Of a stretch of DNA of 64,000 nucleotides, positions 1,652-53,646 are shown piece after piece. This DNA is from a virus. Below the pieces are notes generated by a model. That model worked only from the letters and a program-made list of their open reading frames with translations, was not told where the DNA came from and ran no database searches. The stretch spans positions 5,861 to 69,860 of IMG/VR virus record IMGVR_UViG_3300049218_000083. One strand, 5' to 3'. Position numbers and translations under genes: made by a program. Each line of letters begins with the position of its first letter. The first letter of the stretch is position 1.

Positions 1652-2344
1652 TTACTTTATCGCGTATGAGCGATGCTTACCTGCTGGCCATTGCTTCATT
1701 TCGCTGGAGTGTTTAGCAACATGAGTTACAACACCACGCTCACCGCTCTTCATGCTTGGGTGAATACCATGACGCCATTGCGCATTGGATTGTCTGTGGT
1801 GAGTTCCTGGGAACTTGGTTGAACGGTTGCCGTCGTCATGAAGATGAACATGGTCACCTGGCTTCATGTCGTGACCACCAGCGATGACGGAAACGTGTTC
1901 TTTGTCACCATAGGTGCCGTCTTTTCTCTTGCCATAGGTGTGGTGGACAACGCGAGCATATCCAGAACCACCATGACTGTCCCAAGAAGCTGTGTGTTCA
2001 TGCTTCTCTGGTTTTTGTGTGTTAATCTTACCAGCACTAACCAATGGAAGATGGTGTGGGTAGTTTTGATCGTTTTCATTTATGATTGAAATAGATTCAA
2101 AAATTGCTGAATCGTCACCGTCTTCATCAACATTTGGGAAGAAGAATGATTCAGTTTTTGGCTCTTCTGGCTTGTCATGAACTTTGATTTCTGCCCAGTG
2201 GTGAGAACTCTTCTTAACACTGGCACCACCACGGAAATCTTTGACTTTCGCGCCAACAGCAAGTGGCTTGCCAGACTTTTCGTGAACAAGCTTGGTTCGA
2301 CCTTCGCGGTCAGACTCGTTCAAGTACTCTTTGAATACACCCAT
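1652..2344 (-). CDS. His-rich putative internal head protein
   Basis: N-terminus MGVFKEYLNE resembles T4 capsid-targeting sequence MKTYQEFIAE; lies between gp20 and gp21. Confidence 0.55.
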   Translation of the reverse strand: MGVFKEYLNESDREGRTKLVHEKSGKPLAVGAKVKDFRGGASVKKSSHHWAEIKVHDKPEEPKTESFFFPNVDEDGDDSAIFESISIINENDQNYPHHLPLVSAGKINTQKPEKHEHTASWDSHGGSGYARVVHHTYGKRKDGTYGDKEHVSVIAGGHDMKPGDHVHLHDDGNRSTKFPGTHHRQSNAQWRHGIHPSMKSGERGVVTHVAKHSSEMKQWPAGKHRSYAIK

Positions 2345-2345
2345 C

Positions 2346-2624
2346 TTACACCCCCATTGCGTGTCTACGACGCAAACTTCTTTTTCTCTTCAACAATGTT
2401 CGAGCCATCTTTGCTCGACGCTTGAACTTACCCTTTCGTGCTCCACGCTTTCTGTGAAGCTTTTCTTGTGCACTCATGCGCACCAGTCTTCCGCCACGTA
2501 TCGTGAAGCCTTTCACGTTACTGACTTTTACGTTGCGCTGTACCTTACCATTCTTGATCCTAAGACGAATCCTTTTGATACGACCAGCAGTTTTCTCACT
2601 AAGATACTGCTTGAAGGATTTCAT
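2346..2624 (-). CDS. gp68: Prohead core protein, gp68-like, highly basic
   Basis: MKSFKQYLSE start; Arg/Lys-rich end KRKRSLRRRHAMG like T4 gp68 RKRKKALKRRKALG; synteny. Confidence 0.7.
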   Translation of the reverse strand: MKSFKQYLSEKTAGRIKRIRLRIKNGKVQRNVKVSNVKGFTIRGGRLVRMSAQEKLHRKRGARKGKFKRRAKMARTLLKRKRSLRRRHAMGV

Positions 2625-2625
2625 T

Positions 2626-3114
2626 TTATGGATGGAATGTGTTATCGTTGTACTGGGTGTAGACGTTAGCGTATCCGCCGCCAGCGTCGCCTTCCTTGTT
2701 CAACTTAAGGATCAGCGTAAATCCGTCGCCTGGAATAGCACCTTGAATAGTAAGTCCAAGATCACCACCCAAACCGTGATTCAAATTCGCAGTGTTTGCT
2801 GCAAGTGGGTTTGGCATGTACGCTTCAAACACGCTTGAAGTTTTACCACCAACAACAGCCAAGTCACTGTTTCCGCCAGCGCCAGTTCCAACCCATTGAA
2901 GGAGTGCATAGCCATTGGCAAAACCAGCAGCATACTGAATAGAAATACAAGACAACACGCATGGCTTAGAGCTGTTTGCATAAGCGAGAGTGTTTGCCTG
3001 AATGATCTGAGTGTTACTGTTGGTTGCAGCCGTGTAATAGCCAACGATCTTAACAACAGTGCGATCGCCTGTATCGACCAAAATTTGTACTTCAGGGACG
3101 TTAGGTGTTGACAT
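2626..3114 (-). CDS. Hypothetical virion structural protein
   Basis: 162-aa low-charge beta-rich ORF tightly packed in the head operon. Confidence 0.55.
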   Translation of the reverse strand: MSTPNVPEVQILVDTGDRTVVKIVGYYTAATNSNTQIIQANTLAYANSSKPCVLSCISIQYAAGFANGYALLQWVGTGAGGNSDLAVVGGKTSSVFEAYMPNPLAANTANLNHGLGGDLGLTIQGAIPGDGFTLILKLNKEGDAGGGYANVYTQYNDNTFHP

Positions 3115-3123
3115 CGTATCCTC

Positions 3124-4293
3124 TTACTTCAAATGGGTCGACACAAATTTGGCGACCTTGCTCAATCCTGCTGGGCCACTGTTGATAAGAGACTCAATCT
3201 TCTTCTTATTCTGTGGATTTACCTTACTATGTAGCTTCATGATCATTGCTGCTGTAGGATGATCAACCATGCCTGAAGAGCCGTTCTTGTAACGCACCTG
3301 AGCTGGATGACGTGTTTTCGTAATTGCGTGCAGCGTGTGAATCGTTGCTTCATGTACAACATCTTCACCGAGCTCGGCAGCCGCATGCTTGTACTTGGCA
3401 TAATGATGGTTTGCGCGACCTTCGTCACCTTCGATGTGATGGCCGGCAGCTGACTTGAAATGATTTAGAGCTTTCTCACCATAACGCTGACGGACGACTT
3501 TTTCAATGTGACGATGTGGGCGGAATGATGGATCTTTCAGATTGCGCGGACTTTGTAGATGCTTGACGTACATACCGAATAGGTTGTCGGAAGTATCTTC
3601 ATTGACGCCAATCAGTGCCATGTAGTCTTCGTACACGTCATCGATGATGTCATCATTCCAGTCTGATACGTCGTCTCCATTCTCTTCTAGTTCAGAACCG
3701 AGCCAGTTGTAAAGAGCGATGTCCAATTCACCCTTGTTACCTTCGCCAACCAAACGCTTGTATGCCGCCTGTATAACGTCGATCTTGCGCTGACGGGGAA
3801 TATCGTCGAACCCTTCTGTAAGAGTGTCTAGGTTCTCACCGTGCTGCTTGATATGATGCTGAAGCGTCTTGACAGACAGCTGATGCTTGTTAGCAGCCTT
3901 GATGTGTGCAGCTAGATTGCGAGGGTATGCCTTTGGGTCCGCAGCAGTGATGTCAGCCTTTTGCTTCGTTTTGGTCATAGCTTTACGAGTCGTTTCGACA
4001 TCGCGTTCAAGGGTACGACGATCGGTGCGGATCTTCTTCAGTTCCGGACTCATTGCTTCATCAAGTGATTCTGTGAAATTGCCTACAGTGCTCAGCAAAC
4101 GCTTTCCTAATGTTTCTGGGTTGTATGGAATCGCAACCTCAAGATCAAGGTTGTCATTGCGATAGGTTGCGACACGCTGGTTGTTTGGAAACAGACGAAT
4201 CGCCTTTCTACGCATTGTAAGAACTGTAGGTGGATCCTGGAATGCAGGTGACTCCGTCAGTTCTCGAGTTCGTAGTTCTTTCAAAGTTTTCAT
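3124..4293 (-). CDS. Putative internal head polyprotein
   Basis: MKTLKELR..LTE start; repeated hydrophobic-X-E motifs (LTE, LDE, LTE, VNE, VHE) separating modules. Confidence 0.6.
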   Translation of the reverse strand: MKTLKELRTRELTESPAFQDPPTVLTMRRKAIRLFPNNQRVATYRNDNLDLEVAIPYNPETLGKRLLSTVGNFTESLDEAMSPELKKIRTDRRTLERDVETTRKAMTKTKQKADITAADPKAYPRNLAAHIKAANKHQLSVKTLQHHIKQHGENLDTLTEGFDDIPRQRKIDVIQAAYKRLVGEGNKGELDIALYNWLGSELEENGDDVSDWNDDIIDDVYEDYMALIGVNEDTSDNLFGMYVKHLQSPRNLKDPSFRPHRHIEKVVRQRYGEKALNHFKSAAGHHIEGDEGRANHHYAKYKHAAAELGEDVVHEATIHTLHAITKTRHPAQVRYKNGSSGMVDHPTAAMIMKLHSKVNPQNKKKIESLINSGPAGLSKVAKFVSTHLK

Positions 4294-8762: not shown

Positions 8763-8851
8763 GCGCCTGTAGCTCAGGGGAGACCCTCAGAAAGTCACAG
8801 AGCAATTGCCTGATAAGCAATAGGTCGTTGGTTCGACTCCAACCAGGCGCG
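8763..8851 (+). tRNA. tRNA-Ile(GAT) with expanded D-loop, CCA not encoded
   Basis: Acceptor GCGCCTG/CAGGCGC, D-stem GCTC/GAGC, anticodon arm ATTGC-CTGATAA-GCAAT, variable AGGTC, T arm GTTGG-TTCGACT-CCAAC. Confidence 0.85.
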
Positions 8852-8864
8852 CACCTCAGTTCAA

Positions 8865-27111: not shown

Positions 27112-27323
27112 ATCATGAAAACACCTATCGTGTAACCATCAATCTCATTGGCACCAAGCATATCAAAACCATGGTTGGCAAAAGCCTGGTTGACATTACA
27201 TCTGAAATCATGCGTGAGTCTGAGGATGCATTCTATGCAGTGACCATTGAAAAACTCGTCGAAACGCAAACACTCTTTGATGTCACTGGCACGTTTCGCA
27301 CCAGAGCACTGAAGGGGGGGTGA
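27108..27323 (+). CDS. Hypothetical protein
   Basis: ATGA overlap with upstream ORF. Confidence 0.5.
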   Translation: MNHENTYRVTINLIGTKHIKTMVGKSLVDITSEIMRESEDAFYAVTIEKLVETQTLFDVTGTFRTRALKGG

Positions 27324-27338
27324 GAAACCAAAGGAAGG

Positions 27339-27512
27339 ATGATGAAATGCATTATTCGTAACTGTACCAACGACCTGGCACCCAGAGCCAAGTCTAAGAT
27401 GTGCAGCAACTGCCGCTCCAGCATTCATCGATGGGACAAACGCAGACCCAGTGAACGGCTGGAGCGCATTCGTAATCTCAACCTTTACACTGCAAGAATG
27501 AAGGAGGTGTAG
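27339..27512 (+). CDS. Small C4 zinc-finger protein (57 aa)
   Basis: Manual translation KCIIRNC...KMCSNC; SD AAGGA. Confidence 0.55.
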   Translation: MMKCIIRNCTNDLAPRAKSKMCSNCRSSIHRWDKRRPSERLERIRNLNLYTARMKEV

Positions 27513-27513
27513 C

Positions 27514-27831
27514 ATGCGAAAGCACAAGGAAGAATACAAACGCAGCATTGCCAAGCGTGTGAAGGCTGGTGAAGCAGTAGCTGCCATTGCCAAGTCAGAC
27601 AAGCTTGCGAACTCTCTGATCTACAACTGGACCAAACGGTTCTCAGACCCCAGTCCAAAGGCTGTTAAGAAACGCAAGCATACTCCAATGCAGGAAGCAA
27701 TCATCTATCTGCACCATGCTCGGACAGCCGCCGTGCTGTCAGTCACACAGGACCCAAGCAGGATGGATGACCCAGTGTATCTCTTTGCCATGATGGCGCT
27801 CAGAACACTTGAGGGTAAGCTGTTGGAGTAG
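27514..27831 (+). CDS. Helix-turn-helix DNA-binding protein
   Basis: EEYKRSIAKRVKAGEAVAAIAKSDKLANSLIYNWTKRF (HTH_Tnp_1-like); SD AAGGAGG. Confidence 0.7.
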   Translation: MRKHKEEYKRSIAKRVKAGEAVAAIAKSDKLANSLIYNWTKRFSDPSPKAVKKRKHTPMQEAIIYLHHARTAAVLSVTQDPSRMDDPVYLFAMMALRTLEGKLLE

Positions 27832-27871
27832 AGTGGGTGAGTTGGATGGCCATGGATGGCTGTCCAACACA

Positions 27872-28435
27872 TTAAGAATCTTTAATGTTCTTTGTACTAT
27901 CTATTTTCAATTTGCCAAGCTTCCAATCCTTGAACTCTTCCTTCACTGGCACGTTGTCAATCACGACTATCATCTGCTGACGTTCACCATTGTTGAACCA
28001 CTTCAGCTTGCCTCCAGGTGATTGTTGCAATTCTTGGAACAATGGTCCTGCACTTCCAATGGCATGATCGTTCCCAAGATTCGCAGTGGCAATGGCTGCA
28101 CGTGCTGCTGCAGTATGCGTGCCACCCTCTGGGAATCCCTCTTTACTGTTGAGCACCAATGGGTTTTTGTAATCGAGCGTGCTGAGAATCGCTGTAAGTT
28201 TGGCAGCACACTGTTCCTCGGTTCCAACTAGCAGCGTGGATACACGAAACAGCCTTCTGTTATTGCCATTTGCCTTGGTTATAGCGATCAGCTTTTTACC
28301 ATTGCCAATGTATGCATCGCTGGACTGATCCGTCCCAAACGATAAGTCGGTTGAGCGATGCAGTCCATAGAAGTACGCACCCGTTGGAATGAACACAGTA
28401 CGAAATACGAAATTCAAGCGAGGTAGATTATTCAT
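27872..28435 (-). CDS. Degenerate GIY-YIG (Seg-like) homing endonuclease
   Basis: FVFRT....GAYFYGLH.......YIGNG; NUMOD-like HTAAARAAIA and WFNNG motifs. Confidence 0.55.
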   Translation of the reverse strand: MNNLPRLNFVFRTVFIPTGAYFYGLHRSTDLSFGTDQSSDAYIGNGKKLIAITKANGNNRRLFRVSTLLVGTEEQCAAKLTAILSTLDYKNPLVLNSKEGFPEGGTHTAAARAAIATANLGNDHAIGSAGPLFQELQQSPGGKLKWFNNGERQQMIVVIDNVPVKEEFKDWKLGKLKIDSTKNIKDS

Positions 28436-28752
28436 GATTGTAGTTACGAGTTGTCCGATTTTTGTTGGTCACGCTCTATATAGTCTGTGATCTCTCTCTA
28501 TCAGCATCACGTACAGTCCAGGCACTCTGTCTAGTTGATTCAGATACTTGCACATCAAAACGTCTTATCAATGCATAGATCATACATAACCTTCACAATG
28601 ATAGGTCTGAGTAGAGCAATCATTTCATTGATTGTTAGCTTACCTTTATTCTCATTATAGATTTTTCTTGGCATGGTCTAGTAATGCAAGTGGTGTTTCT
28701 GACCCATTTGGTAGTCTCTTGTGTCGGCCAAGGAATTCATCGATGAATGTAA

Positions 28753-29036
28753 TTACATGGCGTCCGGAGATGTTTGGGTACGTGTTGCGATCAGATTCTG
28801 TTGGATCTCAGCATCTCGAAAGGTTTCTGACTTCTCTGTATTCTCTCCTGTCAGGCTTACGAATTCATCCAGTCCATCCCTCAGGATTGGAATGTATGGC
28901 ACATAGAACATATGCCAACAGATCGATCAGGTTCAGCGCGCCCATTGGTTCTTTTGATGTATTCTTCATCCGTGCCAACCAGGTCTTCAGACTCTGGTTC
29001 AGGTTCAACAACTGTTACGATTACATTATTCGCCAT
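28753..29036 (-). pseudogene. Frameshifted or two-part small gene carrying a gp23-like GxFYxPYIP motif
   Basis: ORF 29036-28881 and ORF 28911-28753 (MFYVPYIPILRDGLDEFV); removing one AT from GGCATATG joins them as ..VGMFYVPYIP. Confidence 0.5.
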
Positions 29037-29286
29037 CGACATAATACACCATGCCATTGTTCAATGCGCTTGCTTCATCTGGTTCGAGAGGATAGGTTTC
29101 GTTGTAGACATATCGATCCATGAATGGTTTGCCATCGATATATCGAACACGCTCCAGATAGCTTGGTCTGTATATTGTAGTCGTAATTGCTACGAACTCA
29201 TCCAAATCATCATGGGATGGTACTTGGTCCGTCATCATCTTCATCCTCAGTCCATTGTGTGATTCTGTCCTGTAACAGAATCGCAT
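29026..29286 (-). CDS. Small acidic protein
   Basis: DDLDEFV motif; real start probably near 29238. Confidence 0.5.
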   Translation of the reverse strand: MRFCYRTESHNGLRMKMMTDQVPSHDDLDEFVAITTTIYRPSYLERVRYIDGKPFMDRYVYNETYPLEPDEASALNNGMVYYVDGE

Positions 29287-29572
29287 TCGGACTCAATTCT
29301 AAATGGCTCTTGCGAACACCTGGAGACTGGAAAACCTTTTGGCCCCTTGGCTCATCACCATTAAGACCAGATCGTGTTCGTAGCCAAACAGCAGATGCTG
29401 GAACATCACGTTCTCGAATTATTACATCATTGATTGCGCTAATCAGATCAAATTCCACACCATTGCGTTCATTGGCTGTGTGAATGTCTGGATACTCACG
29501 CTGGTAGTAGATCAGAGTGACCATGTCATCCAGTTCACCAAAGAAATCATCATCGTCTTCAGTCATCGTCAT
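29210..29572 (-). CDS. Small acidic protein
   Basis: Starts MTMTEDDDDFFGELDD. Confidence 0.55.
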   Translation of the reverse strand: MTMTEDDDDFFGELDDMVTLIYYQREYPDIHTANERNGVEFDLISAINDVIIRERDVPASAVWLRTRSGLNGDEPRGQKVFQSPGVRKSHLELSPNAILLQDRITQWTEDEDDDGPSTIP

Positions 29573-29792
29573 CACCAAACAGTGCGTCGCGCTCATCATC
29601 CGTGAGAGTTTCGCGAGCGGCTCTTTCTTCATCCATTCGCATTCGTTTCATCAGTTCATCGATTGACATGAACTCCCAATCACCTTTCAGTTTGCGGTTT
29701 TGAGCAGTGACTGTAACCTTCTCGATGGTGATCCTGAGTCTGTTTGGTGTGGGTGCATCCGTACCAACGATATCATCAAATTCATCACTCAT
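29559..29792 (-). CDS. Mini-protein containing a gp23 major capsid fragment
   Basis: ITIEKVTVTAQNRKLK vs gp23-family FSIEKVTVTAKSRALK; start MSDEFDD after SD AAGGA. Confidence 0.7.
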   Translation of the reverse strand: MSDEFDDIVGTDAPTPNRLRITIEKVTVTAQNRKLKGDWEFMSIDELMKRMRMDEERAARETLTDDERDALFGDDDD

Positions 29793-30192
29793 CTCGGATT
29801 CCTTGTTGGATTGCAATGCCACGAGCGTCATCGTTGTCGATTTTCGTAATCTTGGCATGCTTCATTGCTTCGATCATGTCAATGCCATGGACACGATTCA
29901 TGTAATCAATCTGTTCCTGCGATATGGTTGCCCAACGTCCATCTGGCAGCTTGACTTGCTGCGCCTTTGGTTTTGGTGTGGCTATGCCAGCGCGAAGATT
30001 GAACTCATCATCTTCATCTATTTCTGGATCTTCTTCGATGATCTTTTCAACCACGGTTTTCGTAATCTCAGCAATCACCTTTTTGTCAATCTCATCACGA
30101 ATGCTCTTGGCAGCGGCTCGCGCTGCTTCATCATCTGCATACTCCATGTCATACAGATTCTGTTGCATTTCTACTGTGTACTTGGCGTCCAT
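29785..30192 (-). CDS. Mini-protein containing gp23 major capsid fragments
   Basis: AKYTVEMQQNL, IRDEIDKKVIAEI and RVHGID vs gp23 AEYxLELAQDL, ILAEINREVIRTI, AVHGxD. Confidence 0.65.
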   Translation of the reverse strand: MDAKYTVEMQQNLYDMEYADDEAARAAAKSIRDEIDKKVIAEITKTVVEKIIEEDPEIDEDDEFNLRAGIATPKPKAQQVKLPDGRWATISQEQIDYMNRVHGIDMIEAMKHAKITKIDNDDARGIAIQQGIRDE

Positions 30193-30476
30193 TAGAATTC
30201 ATCATCCTGTAATCCGATCTTGTGTTTAGATATGTATTCGACTGCTGCTGGTGATTGGTAAACGTCCACATGCCTGCCGCGATACATTTCACGAACGTGT
30301 TTGGTCTTTCGTATCCATTTGGATCCAGGTGGCAAATCAGACTCCAACACCATCTTGACCACGAAACCAAATCCAATGCCAAACTCACGCAGATCCTCGC
30401 AGTCGTCTTTTGGTGGATCAACCAGCATGACCCAGATTTCCATACCAAATACATCAATGTCGTCATCTTCATTCAT
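30192..30476 (-). CDS. Small acidic protein
   Basis: EDDDIDVFG start, QDDEF end; TAATG coupling. Confidence 0.55.
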   Translation of the reverse strand: MNEDDDIDVFGMEIWVMLVDPPKDDCEDLREFGIGFGFVVKMVLESDLPPGSKWIRKTKHVREMYRGRHVDVYQSPAAVEYISKHKIGLQDDEF

Positions 30477-30854
30477 ACGCTTCTATCTCTGTCTGGCTGA
30501 GCCATCGATCAACTTCCGGCTCGAAGTTACCATCAATCGTTTGGACATAGTATAGAATGATTGGTTCTTTCCAAGCCAGAAAACCAACCACCTCGCAATG
30601 AACACCAGTGGCTATGTGTCTGACTTTCTGACCCAGCTGAAACCTTGGAGTTTCGTAACGACCAAAGCAATCAACATGCATCCAGTGATTACAGTCCAGG
30701 CTTTCCATAGATCTTTTCGTACATCTCTGCACGCCCATCCTTGCCTGGATTCTGTTTGCGGTATTCAGCAACAGCGTCTAGCCATTGCTCGAACTTGCTG
30801 ATCTCTTGCTTGTCATTGGGTGACAGCTTGCGCTTCTTGTTCCAGAAACGAACC

Positions 30855-31130
30855 TTATGAACGAGGTGGGAGATAATAGTCATGGTTGGTCCAGGATGAA
30901 TAGCCATTCTTGTCTTCGTATTCTAACGACAGATGAACAATGGACAGGTGTGGGTTGTCCATTACCTTCTTCAGCTGTTCGATCACGTCTGCAATCACTT
31001 CTGAGCGCGGTATGATATGGTCAATCTCTTGATCCTCATCCGGAACAGCATACGAACCAACATCGTGGGAGAAGAACTCATCGCTTTCGTCGAGTTGCTC
31101 TTCATCGTCAAATGGATTGTTTTCGCTCAT
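30855..31130 (-). CDS. Small acidic protein
   Basis: PFDDEEQLDESDEFFS. Confidence 0.55.
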   Translation of the reverse strand: MSENNPFDDEEQLDESDEFFSHDVGSYAVPDEDQEIDHIIPRSEVIADVIEQLKKVMDNPHLSIVHLSLEYEDKNGYSSWTNHDYYLPPRS

Positions 31131-31429
31131 GGTTTCGCCCCGATCAGTTGTATTGCTTCTCGCATGCTTGGTGTGTCTACTGGTGTGCCTTCAATGATAG
31201 CTGTTAATGCGCTGCGCACTTCGCTAATGTATTGATCTCTGGTCATGCCCCATGGTATGGTAAAATAGATCAGCAGGTTGCTATCTATTACACCAAAGAA
31301 CTCGTCGAAGTCAGGATCACCAGTTGCCATGTCATTGGCAGGAGCGAAAAGGTTTCGCTCAGCCATAGCATCTTGAACATCCTTTAGGAACATCGATGTA
31401 ATGATTTGTTGACGTAGAGTTGCGCTCAT
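31127..31429 (-). CDS. Hypothetical protein
   Basis: DPDFDEFFG motif; ATGA coupling. Confidence 0.55.
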   Translation of the reverse strand: MSATLRQQIITSMFLKDVQDAMAERNLFAPANDMATGDPDFDEFFGVIDSNLLIYFTIPWGMTRDQYISEVRSALTAIIEGTPVDTPSMREAIQLIGAKP

Positions 31430-31722
31430 TTCTTTTGACCTTCTATGTGCATTCTAGCCATGTACTCTGGTGACCAGTATTCTTTCATGTCTTTACAGTT
31501 TTTGGCATATCCCATGTAGATAGCAGACATTGGAATGTCTGGCTCATAGCAGAACGTTACATCGATCATGTTATCCACCACGCGCCTGTATAGACACAAT
31601 GGTTTCTTCTTGGGTGGTTCGTATGGTTGCTCTGTGGCTTCTACAAACTCACTCAATTCATCAAGTTCAGTCTGGTCTTTCTGCTGAGACAATGGATATG
31701 CCGCCTGTATTTTCGCTGTCAT
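31426..31722 (-). CDS. Hypothetical protein
   Basis: ELDELSEFVE and DVTFCYEPDIPM motifs. Confidence 0.55.
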   Translation of the reverse strand: MTAKIQAAYPLSQQKDQTELDELSEFVEATEQPYEPPKKKPLCLYRRVVDNMIDVTFCYEPDIPMSAIYMGYAKNCKDMKEYWSPEYMARMHIEGQKK

Positions 31723-32017
31723 CAGGTGATATGTAGGGAGACTGCCTGTTCAACTCACCCCATGACGAACCGATACCATCAGAAACATTGAAACCACTGT
31801 CACGCAATGCTTTTCGCACCCAATCAGCAATCTGATCTGGCTCGACATCCGGATTGGTGTCAGCCCACCAGTAAGCCTTGATTGCTATCTCGAACATGAG
31901 ATGAATCAGTTTCTGTTGGCGATCGTAGCTCATTTCATTTCCAGTACCAGTGCTCACACCAGTTGTTACCACAGTGAAGAACTCTTCCCAGTTGGAATAC
32001 AGGACAGGTTCAGACAT
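31667..32017 (-). CDS. Hypothetical protein
   Basis: SD AAGGA upstream. Confidence 0.5.
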   Translation of the reverse strand: MSEPVLYSNWEEFFTVVTTGVSTGTGNEMSYDRQQKLIHLMFEIAIKAYWWADTNPDVEPDQIADWVRKALRDSGFNVSDGIGSSWGELNRQSPYISPDDSENTGGISIVSAERPD

Positions 32018-34644: not shown

Positions 34645-35052
34645 CTAAATCGTATCGCGTATCTTTAGTAGAATTTGCGTAACCTCAGTCGATGCTGGTG
34701 AGTTACCATGCTTGTCTGGATGACACAGTCGTATCATACGCGAAACAAGTTCTTTGTTGAATGTACCAGGTGGACTTTTTCCACTGTGTCCATTCTGTAA
34801 CATCTGGGCTCGAATTTCTAGCATGTGATAATCGTGAGCCAATTTGTTGTATCTGAGCTCGAGCATCAGTTTCTGAATCTCAGCCATGATCTGTTTATTC
34901 TTGGTCGCTTCCAGCTCACGTTGCAACTGTTCGACTTTCGTCTGTAGCTGGACTGTTTCGGCTGCCATTTGACGTATAGCTCCAAGATATGTTATGAGCT
35001 TGACGAACGCCCAGGCAAGCATGAATGCCAATAGACCAATCACAAAACCCAT
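34645..35052 (-). CDS. Membrane-anchored coiled-coil protein with C-terminal J-domain-like HPD motif
   Basis: N-terminal TM helix, heptads, MIRLCHPDKHG. Confidence 0.65.
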   Translation of the reverse strand: MGFVIGLLAFMLAWAFVKLITYLGAIRQMAAETVQLQTKVEQLQRELEATKNKQIMAEIQKLMLELRYNKLAHDYHMLEIRAQMLQNGHSGKSPPGTFNKELVSRMIRLCHPDKHGNSPASTEVTQILLKIRDTI

Positions 35053-35320: not shown

Positions 35321-37039
35321 TTAATGATAGCTGTAACCAGAGTATGTCAGGCCACCTTCGTCACCCTGACTCTGACCGACTTCTTCCCAGATGATTCCAT
35401 CCTGCTTGAACTTCTTTGGACCTGGGTCGGCGACTACTCGCTTCATCTCAACTGGCATTTCGTGTGCCAAGTTCTGGATATGATCCTGGTATAGCTCTGA
35501 GCGCGTGTCGATAGCAGACATTGCCTTGAAGAACGCCTGGGTCGTTAGCCAAGCGAACAGCACCAGGGTCATAACGGTATCATCATTGCTCTCTTCGTCT
35601 GCTGCATACGTCTTGTTAGGCTTGATGACGAACGTTGTCAGCTCACTAATTGTGGTGAAGTCCTGGATCTGCAACTGGCTATTCTCAACCAATGCCTTGA
35701 GTGCATTACATCCCTGACGCTTGGTCTTTGGTGTTGTGCGAACACCTGCTGTACGCATAGATTGGGTTGTGACCTTTGTATCCTTGTACTGTGGATCTGA
35801 CTCTGTGTAGAATATGTTTTCGTATTCCAAATCATCGGCGAGTATCTTCAGCACTAATGAACCAATGTCATTGGATTCGCAGAGTACATATGCCATGTTG
35901 TAATAGGTTGCAATTTGATAGATCACAGATGGATACAGTTCAGCTGGCACATCGTTGGCATGGTATACACCAACAACCTTGTATGGCATGCTGGTAACAT
36001 CTACCACGCTGATTGCGTGATAGTCCAACTCTTTACCGTGGCTAACATCACAGCAAGCAACATAACGGTTGGTTGGCACCACGTCTTCATACATGTAGAA
36101 CTTGTTCTCGAACAGTTCCTTTACAGGATCGACATAGATTAGGTTCTTGAGCGCACGGCTGCTGATCAATGTACCTGCGGAACCCATGAACTCGACTTCC
36201 TGTTCCTGTAGGAACTTCTCCTCGCTCATTACAGATTTCTGGTCTTCCATCCATAGCTTGTTACGTCCAGGAACCTGATCCCAGGTCACTGTGATATGCT
36301 TGAACTTGGACTTCTTGTTCTTAGCATCCATGAACATCTTGTAGAAGTGGTTCATACCATTTGGTGTGCTGGATATGATAACCTTGGATTTCTGACCAGA
36401 TGAGATGGTTGGGTATACAGAAGTGAAGAAATTCAAAGCAACATTGTTTGGTACGTGGGCATACTCGTCCAGATACAACAAGCTGATTGTGTATCCTCGG
36501 ATAGCATTGCTTGATGTTGGTGCTGAGAAACAGCGAGAACCGTTCTCCAATAGGAAGCTGGTCTTGTTCCATACGACGATACCCTGTTGCATCCATAGCG
36601 GTACATGCATATACATTTCTTGCACGCGACTCAGAATTTCAGTAGACGTATCCTGCTTGTTAGCAAGAATAGCAACGGTCTTCAGGTCCTGGAATAGAAT
36701 ATACCATAGGATGTATGCAGCACTGGTCTGTGTCTTGCCTGACTGACGTGCAGCACGCATAATCAAACGGTTCCAACGGTGCATCTTATGCACCATACGC
36801 TTCTGATATTTGCGCAACTCAAATGGAATCAAACCAAGGTCGGTGGATACGATCTTGACATAGTTGACAATGAAGTATTCAGGGTCAGATGCGCAGCGCG
36901 TGTACTCTGTGATTTGATCCTGGGTCAACGCTATCTTTTGACCAATCTTCTTCAGTCGTGGATTGCTGTTGAACTTCTCAAGGAAGTCACTCGCACCCTC
37001 GACCTCTTGTACAATTGGAAATGTCTTTTGTTGTGCCAT
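35321..37039 (-). CDS. gp17: Terminase large subunit, T4 gp17-like
   Basis: Walker A RQSGKT, LYLDEYAHV, IISSTPNGMNHFY, nuclease DVS.G..DY and NDD.VM.LV. Confidence 0.97.
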   Translation of the reverse strand: MAQQKTFPIVQEVEGASDFLEKFNSNPRLKKIGQKIALTQDQITEYTRCASDPEYFIVNYVKIVSTDLGLIPFELRKYQKRMVHKMHRWNRLIMRAARQSGKTQTSAAYILWYILFQDLKTVAILANKQDTSTEILSRVQEMYMHVPLWMQQGIVVWNKTSFLLENGSRCFSAPTSSNAIRGYTISLLYLDEYAHVPNNVALNFFTSVYPTISSGQKSKVIISSTPNGMNHFYKMFMDAKNKKSKFKHITVTWDQVPGRNKLWMEDQKSVMSEEKFLQEQEVEFMGSAGTLISSRALKNLIYVDPVKELFENKFYMYEDVVPTNRYVACCDVSHGKELDYHAISVVDVTSMPYKVVGVYHANDVPAELYPSVIYQIATYYNMAYVLCESNDIGSLVLKILADDLEYENIFYTESDPQYKDTKVTTQSMRTAGVRTTPKTKRQGCNALKALVENSQLQIQDFTTISELTTFVIKPNKTYAADEESNDDTVMTLVLFAWLTTQAFFKAMSAIDTRSELYQDHIQNLAHEMPVEMKRVVADPGPKKFKQDGIIWEEVGQSQGDEGGLTYSGYSYH

Positions 37040-44391: not shown

Positions 44392-44561
44392 TATGTGTTA
44401 GGTGTAGGTGCTTTCATGTTGTGAACATTGTGCCAATGATCTACAGTTTGATCTTGTGTAAGACCAACAATTCCTGTTAAGATATCCGCAACCTTCGCAA
44501 AGTCTGGATTCGTATAAAGCGACTCAAACTCCGCATTTGCTGTATTTGCTGTGGTATCCAT
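44391..44561 (-). CDS. Small hypothetical protein (56 aa)
   Basis: Manual [15 protein letters not shown]...; TAATG coupling at both ends. Confidence 0.55.
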   Translation of the reverse strand: MDTTANTANAEFESLYTNPDFAKVADILTGIVGLTQDQTVDHWHNVHNMKAPTPNT

Positions 44562-47506
44562 TATTTCCTCTTTAGCAGTTCAACTTCTGCTCTCAATGCT
44601 TTCAATTCTTCAACCAATGCGCCTATGATACCATTGTAGTTAAGGCTTTTGTGTCCTGTCTCTTCATTCGTATCAACGAGCTCAGGCATAACTTTTTCAA
44701 CGTCCTGGGCAATCAAACCAGCAGATGCTTTGTTGTTGTTCTTCCAGTTAAATCTGACACCATTCAGACCAGCTATGATGTTTTGTGCATCAGTGATTTT
44801 CTTTACATTATCCTTCAGATCCAAGTCAGATGTTGTATTCAAAATGGTAGCAGCCAATGTACCAGTGCTTGACTGGATCGTTACCGCTGCGCAAGTGTAA
44901 TTAGGTGCTGGTGATCCTGAAGTACCATTTGACCAGACAACAGGATATGCAGTTGGATCTGTTCTACCGCTGTTTGTTGTTAAGGTTCCAGCAGTTGTTG
45001 CTGATGTGGCTGAAGTAGCTGAAGCAACAGCGCCAGAAACAAGAGAACCAGGAACGGTTCCGGCAGTCAATGTACCGTTCATCCAATACCAATCCCACGC
45101 ACCAGAACTTGTGTTGTAGAAACCACTGATTCGACTGCTCTGTGTGGTGTCACTGACCATCAAATGTTGGTTTTGATATGACTGGTTGAAATGTATTCCA
45201 GTCCATGATGATGTTGTTCCACTTATTGCTATAGCACCATAGCTCGTTGGTGATGGTGATATGGTTGAAGATGTACCAAATTGGAACACAAGTCCACTGC
45301 TGGTGATTCCAAGTACTGATACTCCACCAACTGCTCCATTATCACCACCAACGTTAAACAGGTGGGCACCACCATTGGCAACATAATTCATGTTTCCGAC
45401 ATAATCTGAACGAACACGACCTTTAACAGATGTTCCGTTGTTAAATTCAAGTGCTGATTGACCTGAGCCGTTGACGTTCTTTACAACAATTCCGCCAACA
45501 GATCCAATACTATTTGCGTATGCTGCACTGTTAGCTGTGACAACAAGTTGCAACTGTCCAGATGGATCCGTTGAAATGATTGGTGGATATGCACTGCTTT
45601 GTGAATCGAAGACCAATGTGCCAGATGGTGCTGTGTTTGGTGTTGAACCAGCATTTGGATACAACGTTACATCGATAGAACCAAAAACATTGACCGCAAA
45701 ATAGCTGTAATTGGCTGCGAGACAGTATAGGTAAACAGATACAGATGAATCTGATTCGGTGTAACAACGAACACCTGAACCATTTATCAACTGTTGACCT
45801 TCGGAATAGAATTTCCAAGAGAAGCCATTTCTATTACCAAAGCATATCGTGTAATGTGATGCTCCACTTGCTGACCAACCGCTGTTGAATTTACCATCGA
45901 TTGTTAGGTTGTCATAACTTCCAGATGTACTTGCAGGAAGGTTAGCAATCTTGTAAAGCGTTGTGCTGGCTGGCGCTGAACCAACACCCTGGAAACCTAG
46001 CAAATTTCCTGGGTTTGAAATCATGTTGGTTGCTTGAACATTTCCAGTAAAGTAGTGGACAGCATTTGGATCTAAGCCATTACCATATGAAATAGCTGTT
46101 ACGTTTGATGTTCCGTTAGCTCTAGATACCGCAAAAATGTTGTTGATATTTGCGCCATTGTCATTGAGAGTCTGGAAAATCCATTCGCCTGTTGCTACGT
46201 CTACGTATGACCTATACGTGCCAGTGTTAGCATTGGCTGTTGTGCTTTTCTGAACAAACAATGGATATGCGTTAGCGAACACCAAAGTAGAGTTGGCAAC
46301 GTTGTATGTCAGGTCACTGTATCCTGCAAATACACCATTGGCGTTGATTTGTAGATCTAGGTTTGCACCACCCGGAATTCCTCCACCACCTGTCAGTGCA
46401 GTATCGATCGTGACGTTAGTTGTGTTTCCACCGATGATAACGTTCGATGTATTGGCAGATTTGATAGCAAGTACACCACCACCTGTTGCTCCAGTTGCGC
46501 CAGTTGGTCCTGTTGGTCCTGTTGGTCCTGTTGAACCAGTACTTCCTGCTGGTCCGGTTGGTCCTGTCGGACCTGTTGAGCCAGTGCTGCCAGTTGAGCC
46601 AGTGCTGCCAGTGCTGCCAGTTGGACCTGCTGGTCCAGTACTTCCTGCTGGTCCGGTTGGTCCTGTCGGACCTGTTGAGCCAGTGCTGCCAGTTGGACCT
46701 GTTGAGCCAGTGCTGCCAGTGCTGCCAGTTGGACCTGCTGGTCCAGTACTTCCTGTTGGTCCGGTTGGTCCTGTCGGACCTGTCGGTCCTGTTAATCCAG
46801 TTGCACCAGTGCTGCCAGTTGGGCCAGTCGGACCAGTGCTGCCAGTTGGACCTGTTGGTCCTGTGCTTCCTGTAGAACCTGTAGAACCAGTTGGTCCTGT
46901 TGGTCCAGTACTTCCTGTTGGTCCAGTTGGACCTGTTGGGCCTGTAGCACCTGTCGCTCCTGTGGCACCTACACCAGTGGAACCTGTTGATCCTGTAGCA
47001 CCGGCTGGACCTGTTGGTCCAGTGGCACCAGTTGCTCCGACTCCAGTTGCTCCCGTGCTACCTGATGGTCCGGTCGGTCCGGTCGGTCCAGTTGCTCCAG
47101 TTGGGCCAGTAGGACCTGTCGGTCCGGTAGCTCCGGAAGCACCTGTCGCACCAGATGCACCTGTTGCGCCGATAGCCGCATTGCCTCCAGGAAATACATC
47201 GATGAATACGTTGACGGACTGGTGAGTGAAGTCATCTGTAACCTTCAACAGCACGTTTGCGCTGTTGCTGAAATTCAAGTTCGCTGTGACGTTGACTAGA
47301 ACGCCATTCTCTTCAATCTTAAGTGAACTGCCACCGCCAAGTGGTGCGAACTGATTGTTCGCATACGCACCTTCAAAGGCATTAAGATCAGTGTTGAAAC
47401 GAAGATCGCCTTCCTTCGGGTTTGGGCGCTGCGCTGTATTTCCGGTTGGGAGAGTTAGCGCATCTTTCGCAATCGAGAAGTCAAAAGACGCATTATTTGC
47501 TGACAT
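44561..47506 (-). CDS. Tail fibre with collagen-like domain and C-terminal S74 intramolecular chaperone
   Basis: LP.G.TAQRP...G.LRFN N-terminus; ~230 aa of G-X-T; [10 protein letters not shown]...[13 protein letters not shown]. Confidence 0.9.
46482..47172 (-). repeat. Collagen-like (G-P/S/A-T)n coding repeat
   Basis: 9-nt period degenerate repeats encoding GPT/GST/GAT. Confidence 0.95.
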
Positions 47507-47533
47507 GGGTGTCTCATGTAGAACGAACCCATG

Positions 47534-47541
47534 TATTTATC
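47534..47541 (-). promoter_or_regulatory. Late promoter (GATAAATA)
   Basis: Intergenic upstream of fibre gene 47506. Confidence 0.6.
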
Positions 47542-47547
47542 GCGAAC

Positions 47548-48621
47548 TCACAGTTGATACCAACCTTCACCTTCGTAGACGTTGAGCACATCCTGAAAGA
47601 ATCGCTCGTATCGTGGCGCAATAGCCTCAAGCGAATAGTTCTCTGCCACCTGCCTACACTTGGCAGGCTCAATCTTGTGGACGTTCTGAGCCGCCTCTAC
47701 GAAGTCCTTGTATGTCCTGCAACGATAGCCTGTTACACCATGAGTGTTATATTCCGTGAACGCACCCCAGTCAGTCGTAATAATTGGAGTGCCGCTGAAC
47801 AGATTCTCAATCGATACACCGGCAAACGGTTCGAGATACAGGCTCGGTATGAAGGACGCTGTAGCCTTCGACATGAGTGTCCGACGCTTTTCTGTATCAG
47901 CGTAGCCAACATACTCTACATGCTCTGGAAACTTGATGCTGCCATCCGTTTGACCTGCGATGATCAGTTTCTTACCCAATGCCTGAGTGACTTGGATTGC
48001 GATGTCAACACCTTTCCCTGGGTATACGCGCCCAAGGAACAGAAAGTAGTCATCCTTCTTGTCACTGTAAGTGAAATCTTCTGGGTCAAAGTAGTTTGGA
48101 ATGACAACGTGATACCAGTCCTGCATACACTTGCCCACAGCTGGCATTCCATAGTATGCGTGGTAGATAGCATATGATTCAAATATCTTCCACTTGGTGG
48201 TGGCAACAGCTGGATAGCCGATACCTGGCTCAATCACAATCATGCTGTCTTTTTCAGCCAGATAGATTCGCTCCAAACCAACACCCCAGAATGGTAGCAG
48301 GATGTCTGTCTTGCGCTTGCGTTTGTTGATTTCTCGGATAGCATTGGCACAGAACACCTGGTGAGCATGATCGTTGACGTCATGCTTGAAGAAGTTCTTG
48401 CGCCAGTCATAGTTGCCGTATGCGATCTCGAGGTCTTTGTTCGTAACGACTGTCACATGCTCAGAACAATCGACGACGCTATCTTCATGACCATAATGAA
48501 TCACCTCGTGGCCGCGAGCGTGCATCATCTTGCAAAACTTGAAAACCTTTTGGGTGAACGCGCAAGCAGTGTACTCTTTGCTCGTTACCGTATGTGGCAA
48601 GCCACAAACATGTAATCTCAT
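47548..48621 (-). CDS. GT-B (GT4-like) glycosyltransferase
   Basis: VIPN, FLFLGR...KG, IAGQ, EPFAGVSIE (E-X7-E), GTPII. Confidence 0.9.
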   Translation of the reverse strand: MRLHVCGLPHTVTSKEYTACAFTQKVFKFCKMMHARGHEVIHYGHEDSVVDCSEHVTVVTNKDLEIAYGNYDWRKNFFKHDVNDHAHQVFCANAIREINKRKRKTDILLPFWGVGLERIYLAEKDSMIVIEPGIGYPAVATTKWKIFESYAIYHAYYGMPAVGKCMQDWYHVVIPNYFDPEDFTYSDKKDDYFLFLGRVYPGKGVDIAIQVTQALGKKLIIAGQTDGSIKFPEHVEYVGYADTEKRRTLMSKATASFIPSLYLEPFAGVSIENLFSGTPIITTDWGAFTEYNTHGVTGYRCRTYKDFVEAAQNVHKIEPAKCRQVAENYSLEAIAPRYERFFQDVLNVYEGEGWYQL

Positions 48622-48833
48622 AATGTCTTGACCCAATCCTCGAACATTTTCAACTCAAATTTTTCAGCAAAGCAAACGGTTGTAATACCAAACACCTGGC
48701 TTACATTCCAACGTTTGTCCTGGTATGGAAAGCCTCTCCAGGAAGTGTACTCGGACTGAAAATGCTCTTTTAGATGATCGAAGATGCGCTGACTGTGTGA
48801 GTAGTAATCCCGATCGAGTACAATTTGATACAT
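48618..48833 (-). CDS. Hypothetical protein
   Basis: Coupled between oxygenase and glycosyltransferase. Confidence 0.5.
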   Translation of the reverse strand: MYQIVLDRDYYSHSQRIFDHLKEHFQSEYTSWRGFPYQDKRWNVSQVFGITTVCFAEKFELKMFEDWVKTL

Positions 48834-48834
48834 G

Positions 48835-49407
48835 TCATCTCCATTTCGGACCATCGATCCAGGCAGCTATACTGTAGCGCATTCCTGATGTAACTGGTAG
48901 AGCAGCGTGCTCAATGAACGATGGGAAGAAGATTACAGTTCCCTGGCCGCGAATCTCGGCAGCGTTGGGTTGCTCCTGAACACCGTACAATTCAAAGTTA
49001 CCACCCTCATATGTAGCAGGATCAGAAAGCTGGATGATTGCGGAAAGCTTGCGATGGTACTTGGGATCGTTGTTCATCCAAAAGACGTCGTTGTGTTTCT
49101 TGTATTCACCCTTGACTGCGCCATCGTATTCGGCGATTTGGAGATAACTCAGCTTGGACAAATGGAAGCCAAACCATTGATCGTTTGACTCTAAAGCCAT
49201 GCCCCATAGGTCATTGAAAATGAAGCCTAGTTCGGCGTCGTTTGGATACACGAAGCGTGTCTTAGACTTACGATGTTGGTTGTTTGCTGCCTTACCGTCA
49301 ACACCAAGCTGTGCATCAGAACCTGGGCGAGATTTCGCGATACGGATGATATCGTTACAGATTTCTGGGCTGTATTTGTTCTTGTAGTAAACCCATTCAC
49401 CTTTCAT
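48835..49407 (-). CDS. 2OG-Fe(II) oxygenase, prolyl-4-hydroxylase/PKHD-type
   Basis: Q..EY, HND, RKLS..QLS...YEGG, FPSF..H...PVT.G.RYS..W..GP. Confidence 0.9.
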   Translation of the reverse strand: MKGEWVYYKNKYSPEICNDIIRIAKSRPGSDAQLGVDGKAANNQHRKSKTRFVYPNDAELGFIFNDLWGMALESNDQWFGFHLSKLSYLQIAEYDGAVKGEYKKHNDVFWMNNDPKYHRKLSAIIQLSDPATYEGGNFELYGVQEQPNAAEIRGQGTVIFFPSFIEHAALPVTSGMRYSIAAWIDGPKWR

Positions 49408-49439
49408 AACGAACTCCCATTATTAAATGATCTACAACT

Positions 49440-50297
49440 TTACCTGAAATACGTGAACAGTACAAATCCACCTTGACCTGATGCAGCTTCTACTGCGCCA
49501 GAGAATAGGACGACTGATCCACTACCTCCTCCACCTGGAGAAGACGCAGCAACTGTACCACCAGTAGATGGATAACCACCTTGTCCATATGTGCCAGTCG
49601 GTCCCAACTGATAGTTCCCATATGGTGTATTATCGAACACACTTGGCTGAACACTTCCACCAGAGCCAAGTCCACCTGGACCGCTAAAGCTTGTTCCACC
49701 TTCTACACCTGCACCGCCAGTCAAGTTCTTGATGTTACCACCAGCAGCCGTACCACCAGCAGAGTCTGGTGTAAACGCAGCCGTACCACCAGCACCATTG
49801 TTAGCATGCATAGTTGTGATAGTTGCACCTGAAACTGAGGTGTTTGTTGTTCCTCTTGATCCAGCACTTCCTGCAGTTGATCCACCAAGGCCACCTGTAC
49901 CACAAACATATGAGAATGTTTGACCAGATGTACATGCGACGTTGGTCAATGCATAGCCACCAGATCCACCACCGGATCCGACAGTATCCTGAGCACCACC
50001 GCTGTAGTATCCACCACCGCCACCACTGCCCCAAGCCTCAATGGTTACGTTTCCCGCACCTGATGGGACGGTTTCTGTTCCTGAACCTGAATATTGTAGA
50101 ACACCATCCATCCACTGATTGCCTGCATACTTGCGTATGTTCAGCTTTCCAGATGATGGAATGTTTACGATTTGACCGTAAGTGTTGGAGACTTCAGAAC
50201 CACCGTTGTAATATGAAAGAAGGTTCTTTGGTGTTGTGGTTCCAGTGAACTCTTTGATGATCTGCAGTAGAGAGATCGTGCCTGTTGCCGGAATCAT
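49440..50297 (-). CDS. Gly-rich fibre-associated protein
   Basis: P..G.ISL..I..EF...L..YY...IP.SG N-terminal module plus IEAWGSGGGG glycine-rich domain. Confidence 0.75.
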   Translation of the reverse strand: MIPATGTISLLQIIKEFTGTTTPKNLLSYYNGGSEVSNTYGQIVNIPSSGKLNIRKYAGNQWMDGVLQYSGSGTETVPSGAGNVTIEAWGSGGGGGYYSGGAQDTVGSGGGSGGYALTNVACTSGQTFSYVCGTGGLGGSTAGSAGSRGTTNTSVSGATITTMHANNGAGGTAAFTPDSAGGTAAGGNIKNLTGGAGVEGGTSFSGPGGLGSGGSVQPSVFDNTPYGNYQLGPTGTYGQGGYPSTGGTVAASSPGGGGSGSVVLFSGAVEAASGQGGFVLFTYFR

Positions 50298-50298
50298 C

Positions 50299-53646
<3,348 letters not shown>

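Follow-up and report, generated by a model that had tools for sequence, protein, structure and literature searches.

Gp23-like pieces joined to a shared acidic motif in a fast-turnover array of small genes from a clade of T4-like viruses

Among the systems closest to the locus described here is Gol, a highly conserved '29-residue region' of the T4 major capsid protein gp23, which when expressed alone binds EF-Tu and switches on the Lit protease of prophage e14 (PMC3014915), and which the Gol literature treats as part of gp23. The T4 internal proteins IPI-III and Alt are diverse and share a 10-residue capsid targeting sequence, MKTYQEFIAE, in which positions 4 and 7 drive targeting (PMC9026906; doi 10.1101/2021.01.19.427310). 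A third comparison is offered by the clamp-binding tails of T4 gp43 (SLDFLFG), gp55 (SLDFLY..) and gp33 (TLDFLL), motifs of a kind that is interchangeable and functional when internal too (review, PMC2988020). Here we analyze a minus-strand array of small open reading frames (ORFs) at positions 28753-32017 of a 64,000-nucleotide stretch of viral DNA, hereafter the window, which represents bases 5861-69860 of a 166.7-kb T4-like virus record (IMGVR_UViG_3300049218_000083, about 98% complete). An original prediction, made from the letters of the window without database searches, had described this locus as an array of mini-proteins built from fragments of gp23. We show that it is this phage's version of a fast-turnover array that a small clade of T4-like phages carries downstream of terminase, and comparison of the relatives indicates that within this clade an acidic motif, the DEF box, has repeatedly been joined to short conserved pieces of the phages' own gp23.

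Like Gol, the box proteins L005:7692-7955 and L116:7026-7202 of two related phages copy just the T4 gp23 92-127 region, the Gol stretch itself presumably lying at about residues 93-122. However, the pieces in the window correspond to gp23 195-256, Gol is a part of gp23 and not a separate natural gene, and a scan of 1,173 small six-frame ORFs of the genome with a local gp23 hidden Markov model (HMM), built from 118 gp23 sequences of the clade, recovered no Gol-like ORF. The likeness to the T4 internal proteins lies in the use of one short tag on otherwise unrelated, fast-evolving small proteins, whereas the DEF box is acidic, variably placed and without a protease site, and the proteins are mostly acidic. 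The T4-family proteins gp43, gp55 and gp33 each use a short linear hydrophobic-acidic epitope for docking on a single hub, the clamp (PMC2988020). The box is similar to the pattern L-acidic-x-hydrophobic-hydrophobic, but the L-E-x-L-F motif of this clade is C-terminal, whereas the DEF box is mostly N-terminal and has its Phe one position earlier. A full-text search of the literature found no description of natural capsid-fragment mini-genes. Srd and Srh of T4 reportedly look like parts of host sigma factors, and eukaryotic microProteins compete for the partners of their parent protein; the gp23-like mini-proteins resemble both in their small size and in deriving from a single segment of a larger protein, and differ from them in that the copied protein is the phage's own capsid protein, of which several pieces appear, each with a common tag.

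The gp23 gene of the phage itself (genome 4185-5549, minus strand, 454 aa) was found just ahead of the window, where the original prediction had placed it. It is the single full-length Gp23-family gene in the whole genome, in which no gp24-like vertex paralogue was detected, and its nearest counterpart in a cultured phage is that of a Synechococcus phage, at <60% identity. ORF A (29559-29792, minus strand; 77 aa, isoelectric point (pI) 4.3) consists of an N-terminal DEF box, a gp23-like strand, a predicted helix and an acidic tail, and the resemblance to gp23 that had been claimed for it was confirmed by several independent procedures. BLASTP aligned residues 22-66 (29595-29729, minus strand) with gp23 196-240 at a pairwise E of 2e-5; the strong part of this segment, residues 22-39 (29676-29729), matches gp23 196-213 and includes an identical 8-mer. 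None of 2,000 shuffles exceeded the Smith-Waterman score of the pair (Gumbel P about 2e-5), and in a search of the array ORFs against all 244 genome ORFs of at least 120 aa the match of ORF A to gp23 was the only non-self match with E <0.1 (E 0.001). With the local gp23 HMM ORF A ranked first of the 1,173 small ORFs (E 7e-4), and it matched positions 129-171 of the Pfam Gp23 profile (PF07068, 376 positions, cut-off 24.4 bits) with 15.5 bits (E 0.012), as well as PHROG 138 (major head protein) with an E of 0.011.

At the DNA level the 8-codon core of ORF A is the same as the gp23 gene at 22 of 24 nucleotides and carries the phage's own codons at all three synonymous sites that vary among gp23 orthologues, whereas synonymous sites in the flanks of this core are saturated (proportion of synonymous differences, pS, 0.75). 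We read this pattern as an old paralogous segment in which a short patch was probably converted recently; by our estimate, chance alone would produce about one exact 17-nt repeat in a genome of such size. An AlphaFold2 model of ORF A had a predicted local distance difference test (pLDDT) score of 61, too low for fold searches. In this low-confidence model the isolated protein is mostly unstructured across the gp23-like strand, as would be expected of a peptide that needs a partner. Word-indexed searches of 5.8 billion protein clusters with ORFs A and B returned only self-matches, and PDB sequence searches with both did not retrieve gp23. As a separate observation, the C-terminus of ORF A (29559-29600, minus strand) reads ..DALFG followed by four Asp residues, a sequence similar to the one with which the phage's DNA polymerase ends, its clamp-binding tail (..LESLFGE).

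The adjoining ORF B (29785-30192, minus strand; 135 aa, pI 4.6) has an N-terminus resembling the gp23 spine helix, an acidic linker with the DEF box at residues 62-64, and a C-terminal part. Its residues 2-48 (30049-30189, minus strand) resemble gp23 208-256 with 34% identity and one gap, and this segment is probably gp23-derived: ORF B ranked second of the 1,173 small ORFs with the local HMM, matched Pfam Gp23 at profile positions 151-198 (E 0.068, 13.0 bits), gave a shuffle P of 0.008 against gp23, and, in a two-sequence family profile, matched the gp23 profile with an E of 0.0015. Taken by itself, ORF B might owe its gp23 likeness to chance, which we regard as unlikely though well worth keeping in mind. 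Of the motifs from which ORF B had originally been called a gp23 fragment, the RVHGID match is not supported when taken by itself; the N-terminal 48 residues stand as a probable fragment in view of their rank and of the relatives. These relatives comprise L005:6278-6625 and P0126-P0130, five being found by exhaustive profile search; the family is intact as an ORF in at least six other metagenomic sequences, and it keeps the helix-like N-terminus across lineages in which gp17 is only about 66% identical. Gp23 is the top Pfam family in three of the five relatives from the profile search, namely P0126 (22.1 bits, profile positions 149-198), P0127 (positions 175-199) and P0129 (positions 336-356). 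The AlphaFold2 model of ORF B (pLDDT 55) was again too low for fold searches, and the ESM Atlas held nothing usable for this ORF.

A survey of relatives, as the original prediction had proposed, showed that sister phages repeat the design, using different pieces of gp23. Syntenic arrays lie downstream of the terminase gene in phages whose terminase is 64-68% identical, and their orthology is patchy, with low identities (28-44%): about ten ORFs in L005 begin with or contain the box, several of them exactly as MDELDEF, and only three box ORFs are present in L098/L007. The strongest fragment is that of L005:7692-7955 (87 aa, N-terminal box), which scores 28.1 bits with Pfam Gp23 (E 1.7e-6), above the cut-off, matches its own gp23 with a shuffle P of 4e-10 and aligns in a PDB sequence search with T4 gp23 92-127, the Gol region. 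It shares codons with gp23 at only 2 of 14 identical residues, yet has 39% amino-acid identity to it, a combination which argues for constraint at the protein level. Save for the 8-codon core of ORF A, synonymous sites of the gp23-like fragments are saturated, yet about 36-39% amino-acid identity to gp23 is retained. A 58-aa box protein of another lineage, L116:7026-7202, also has a Gol-like piece (E 9e-4) and lies in the same terminase-downstream array as P0126. P0129 (L115:784-1119) matches gp23 405-429 (local HMM E 1e-7), and after its box follows a 20-residue stretch 70% identical to gp23 410-429. Thus four lineages combine the same tag with three different gp23 regions, namely the N-arm/Gol region (about 79-118), the strand 195-213 with the spine helix 214-256, and the C-terminal strand 405-429; of the second region, the strand is found in ORF A of the window and the helix in ORF B. 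In terms of the HK97 fold, every copied piece belongs to the N-arm or to the P-domain 'floor'. Over the approximately 37 kb that we walked, a relative whose gp23 is 85% identical showed another island, in which only one gene has the DEF box. This lone gene, L103:1015-1278, begins MSDEFYDLIGTE.. followed by a small, apparently beta-rich domain, and has a box that differs little from the one in ORF A.

The acidic flanks of the gp23-like pieces, which the original prediction had called unrelated, turn out to contain one shared motif. Nine of the 26 DEF tripeptides found genome-wide in six frames fall within 27260-31306, all on the minus strand, although this 4-kb interval makes up 2.4% of the genome (binomial P 6e-9). 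With its variants SEF, EEFF, DDFF and DVF the box occurs in nearly every array ORF, usually near the N-terminus, its position ranging in the window from residue 3 to 62; it is internal in ORF B, and a second copy is present at the C-terminus of 30192-30476. It is a short acidic/aromatic element that frequently reads ...LDEF with a hydrophobic residue added; one subfamily has it in the form DEF-x3-[VI]-G-T. The proteins that bear it are all acidic (pI 4.1-5.2). As the DNA flanking the boxes is not conserved, the box is a motif at the protein level, and we rejected the idea that it is a DNA-level repeat. We also dropped a derivation of the whole DEF-box family from a gp23 fragment, with the box as the stretch before the gp23 strand, on account of an hhalign probability of 0.15%. 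A scan of our collection for DNA encoding MDELDEF gave mostly chance matches. DEF-like motifs at the C-termini of other ORFs were uninformative: one such ORF looked by eye like a baseplate gp26-like protein, and another was a spurious antisense frame of the clamp gene.

The minus strand of the window runs from the terminase gene (35321-37039) through a few small genes to the array and then, after about 20 kb of other genes, to structural genes which by position and size we read as sheath, tube, portal, protease and scaffold; of these five only the scaffold frame was viewed in translation. The array itself extends from 32017 down to 28753 and contains about 13 small ORFs of 51-135 aa, located at the coordinates originally given for them, with stops and starts that overlap or abut and with Shine-Dalgarno-like sequences 5' of most starts. 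In a codon model trained on the 52 longest ORFs of the phage the annotated frame scored best for every main array ORF, with clear margins for ORFs A and B; the only ORF with an ambiguous coding signal was 28881-29036. Given this codon usage and the overlaps between neighbouring starts and stops, the members look like real, separate, translationally coupled small genes, as had been proposed. The window stretch is present letter for letter in several moss metagenome runs, and contigs from four other moss metagenome runs are identical to it and so offer no dN/dS within the population. Megablast of the array region against phage records gave no match, and PHROGs, PADLOC and Pfam returned nothing besides the gp23 matches for the array or its neighbours.

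The other array genes, all on the minus strand, begin upstream with a 116-aa acidic ORF (31667-32017), which has an EEFF box near its N-terminus and, as judged by eye, a probable homologue in L116:5243-5620. It is followed by a 98-aa ORF (31426-31722) with a SEF variant of the box, and a 100-aa acidic ORF (31127-31429) with a DEFFG box and no gp23 similarity. Next comes a 91-aa acidic DEF-box ORF (30855-31130) with homologues in L005, L098/L007 and L116, and probably, by eye and unscored, in L115. The array is then interrupted by two overlapping ORFs without a DEF box (30469-30907), namely a 72-aa basic ORF (30689-30907) with a homologue in L098/L007 and an ORF of up to 100 aa (30469-30771). 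A 94-aa acidic ORF (30192-30476) has an N-terminal DEF-box variant and a C-terminal DDEF, and is a paralogue over its full length (P 4e-4) of the 118-aa acidic ORF at 29210-29566, which has an N-terminal acidic FFG box and whose start was set at an internal ATG overlapping the stop of ORF A. Farther downstream are an acidic ORF of about 70 aa (29026-29238), which has an LDEF box and whose N-terminal 30 residues are homologous to L005:7692-7955, the 51-aa ORF at 28881-29036 with an EDLVGT variant of the box, and a 52-aa ORF (28753-28911) whose first 9 residues marginally resemble gp23 390-398 and are followed by an LDEF box. The 29026-29238 ORF, although the window ortholog of L005:7692-7955, is without the Gol piece, which it has lost or never had. 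The original picture of a gp23 piece in each ORF does not survive, as only the matches in ORFs A and B hold out of the six listed. That of MFYVPYIP at 28753-28911 is marginal, with a shuffle P of 0.009 but a genome-level E of 0.2 that an unrelated protein equals, and those proposed at 31426, 29026 and 30192 are at chance level against shuffles, the 30192 motif being common to its paralogue at 29210 rather than to gp23.

Several features of the surroundings are worth recording. Just after the terminase gene a 135-aa protein (34645-35052, minus strand), which combines a membrane helix at its N-terminus with a coiled stretch and, at the C-terminus, the motif CHPDKH, is kept in three lineages (also L005:4164-4496 and L116:4000-4350); the CHPDKH motif looks like the HPD signature of the J-domain of DnaK co-chaperones, and Pfam gave no J-domain match. 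The downstream end of the array is marked by a conserved ORF of about 190-206 aa (27872-28435, minus strand; L005:11090-11691, where it is split in two ORFs; L098:15265-15885), which has no family match and by eye resembles a homing-endonuclease-type gene. Between the portal and protease genes three genes (1652-4293, minus strand) have T4-like targeting-type leaders, MKSFKQYLSE, MGVFKEYLNE and MKTLKELRTRELTE. Collagen-like Gly-X-Y repeat proteins at 44561-53646 (minus strand) give spurious low-complexity tblastn matches to the Gly-rich N-terminal part of gp23, which need discounting in any gp23 scan of this genome. ARAGORN reports a 90-nt tRNA-Thr (anticodon AGT) at 8763-8852 (plus strand), another reading of which is a tRNA-Ile (GAT) with an oversized D-loop. 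As regards promoters, the window contains no copy of the T4 late promoter TATAAATA. A related heptamer, CTAAATA, has 28 copies in the genome, of which the minus strand has 26; several copies precede the starts of structural genes by about 35-40 nt, and the heptamer is likely to be the core of the late promoter. In the window it occurs on the minus strand at 50, 981, 6570, 9613, 11662, 41524, 42419, 53681, 57370, 61190 and 63322, and, since there is none between 11662 and 41524, the array is without a late-type signal. Sigma-70-like sites near the array were no commoner than in shuffles, so that no early promoter was established, and an operator-like box occurs at 13.5-21.7 kb, away from the array.

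How this arrangement arose and what it does can be weighed by setting the possible explanations against the above evidence. That the resemblances are chance products of acidic, helix-rich small ORFs seems very improbable, and for ORF A is disfavoured outright. The low Pfam scores of 15.5 and 13.0 bits, under the cut-off of 24.4, the roughly single 17-nt repeat expected anyway, and the four of six claimed matches lying at or near chance level would fit such an explanation; however, ORF A has a P of 2e-5 against shuffles and is top in three independent searches, ORFs A and B are adjacent and rank first and second of 1,173, and their relatives reach or approach the Pfam cut-off at matching alignment positions. 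The sub-threshold scores mark the two ORFs as fragments and not as capsid proteins. Least probable of all, in our estimate, is a decayed second gp23 copy overprinted by chance ORFs. Adjacent ORFs do match adjoining parts of gp23 (195-213 and 208-256), as would be expected of such a relic, but gp23 is represented in the window only by residues 195-256, in two pieces whose order on the DNA is reversed; no further gp23-like stretch was found in any of the six frames of the region, both ORFs have clear in-frame coding statistics, and the ORF B family is intact in the other metagenomic sequences mentioned above. On this point the original statement that the array is not one decayed gp23 copy is borne out. 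We tentatively favour the reading that the mini-proteins are modular micro-proteins, each a tag plus a capsid peptide, acting as competitive mimics. In its favour count the coding signal of the genes, the gp23 homology of ORFs A and B, the recurrence and retention of gp23-like pieces in the relatives, the shared tag and the mostly unstructured model of ORF A. On this proposal the gp23-derived peptide would engage whatever normally binds the matching segment on unassembled gp23, putatively either a further component of head assembly or a host factor (EF-Tu, a chaperone or a sensor of capsids), and all members of the family would attach to a single hub through the DEF box. If mimicry is indeed at work, decoying of a host sensor or host factor and modulation or poisoning of head assembly would account for about half of the expectation each. 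A more specific and rather improbable form of the idea is a library of baits, in which each mini-protein would show one conserved, hard-to-mutate piece of unassembled gp23 to a host surveillance factor, be it a sensor of capsids (CapRel-, Avs- or other) or EF-Tu together with a Lit-like protease; once captured, this factor would be held by the DEF box at a common hub, for instance the sliding clamp or a protease, and capsid-triggered immunity would be blunted before gp23 is made. Several points weigh against mimicry. Detectable gp23 pieces are present in only 2 of the about 13 array genes of the window, and capsid mimicry is not the function of the whole array, because the tested DEF-box subfamily profile (A2, 8 sequences) is not detectably related to gp23 (hhalign probability 0.15%). 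The pieces are dispensable, given that the 29026 ortholog lost or never had the Gol piece. The spine helix and the P-domain strand are buried in folded gp23, so that a sensor of the folded capsid would not see them, and the restriction to conserved pieces is in part an artefact of detection, as only conserved gp23 segments are recognisable.

We rank just under mimicry, and consider nearly as likely, the doubtful but substantial possibility of exaptation without mimicry, in which gp23 DNA served as raw material, by ectopic recombination or template switching feeding new small genes in a hyperplastic region, and the function is set by the DEF box and unrelated to the capsid. Such an origin would suit the facts that most array members are without a gp23 piece, that the DEF-subfamily profile is not gp23-like, that the array turns over rapidly, and that the island of the relative with 85% identical gp23 is a different one, with one DEF-box gene; the synonymous codons of its own lineage that the ORF A core shares with the gp23 gene also suggest exchange at the DNA level. 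In a concrete version, suggested by analogy, the box may be a binding epitope for the sliding clamp (gp45), and the proteins would modulate replication or clamp-dependent late transcription. The box is of the same type as the acidic-hydrophobic clamp-binding tails of the T4 family, and in this clade the phage's own gp43 ends in LESLFGE, its gp55 tail is similar, and the L005 lineage has LEGLFG and LEKLFEE; however, the invariant Phe of the box is one position earlier (L-D-E-F-hydrophobic as against the L-E-x-L-F of the clade). Random capture should, moreover, sample other genes, whereas the array ORFs match no other large protein of the genome, and three gp23 regions recur independently in four lineages, always with the same tag. 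An improbable further explanation sees the products as capsid-targeted internal or ejected proteins, the DEF box being a capsid targeting sequence that loads them into the prohead core and the gp23 pieces helping to place them next to the shell or scaffold. The T4 internal proteins are built in this way, as highly diverse small proteins that share an N-terminal tag (PMC3012670, PMC9026906). In the relatives the box often stands right at the N-terminus and puts hydrophobic residues at 4 and 7, the positions used for targeting in T4, and the array has head genes on one side and tail genes on the other, all on one strand. Against this, the canonical leaders MKSFKQYLSE and MGVFKEYLNE are on genes of the portal-protease interval and are unlike the DEF box, the position of the box varies from residue 3 to 62 in the window with no consistent L/I-x-E cleavage site, most array proteins are acidic whereas the T4 internal proteins are basic, and the CTAAATA element that precedes structural genes is absent from 11662-41524.

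The major capsid protein sets off a number of bacterial defences, and the most conserved segments of gp23 cannot easily mutate away from whatever reads them; free-standing, tagged copies of such segments would give a phage a compact means of competing for the reader, whether this is EF-Tu, a chaperone, an adjacent capsid subunit or a sensor of the immune system. What is new here is the acidic DEF-box tag, the repeated joining, at the level of a clade, of different gp23 pieces to this same tag, and the use of pieces beyond the Gol region, namely a P-domain strand, the spine helix and a C-terminal strand. If a partner is found, the peptides would directly map its recognition surfaces; if there is none, the array would still illustrate clearly how new small genes are assembled out of parts of an essential one.

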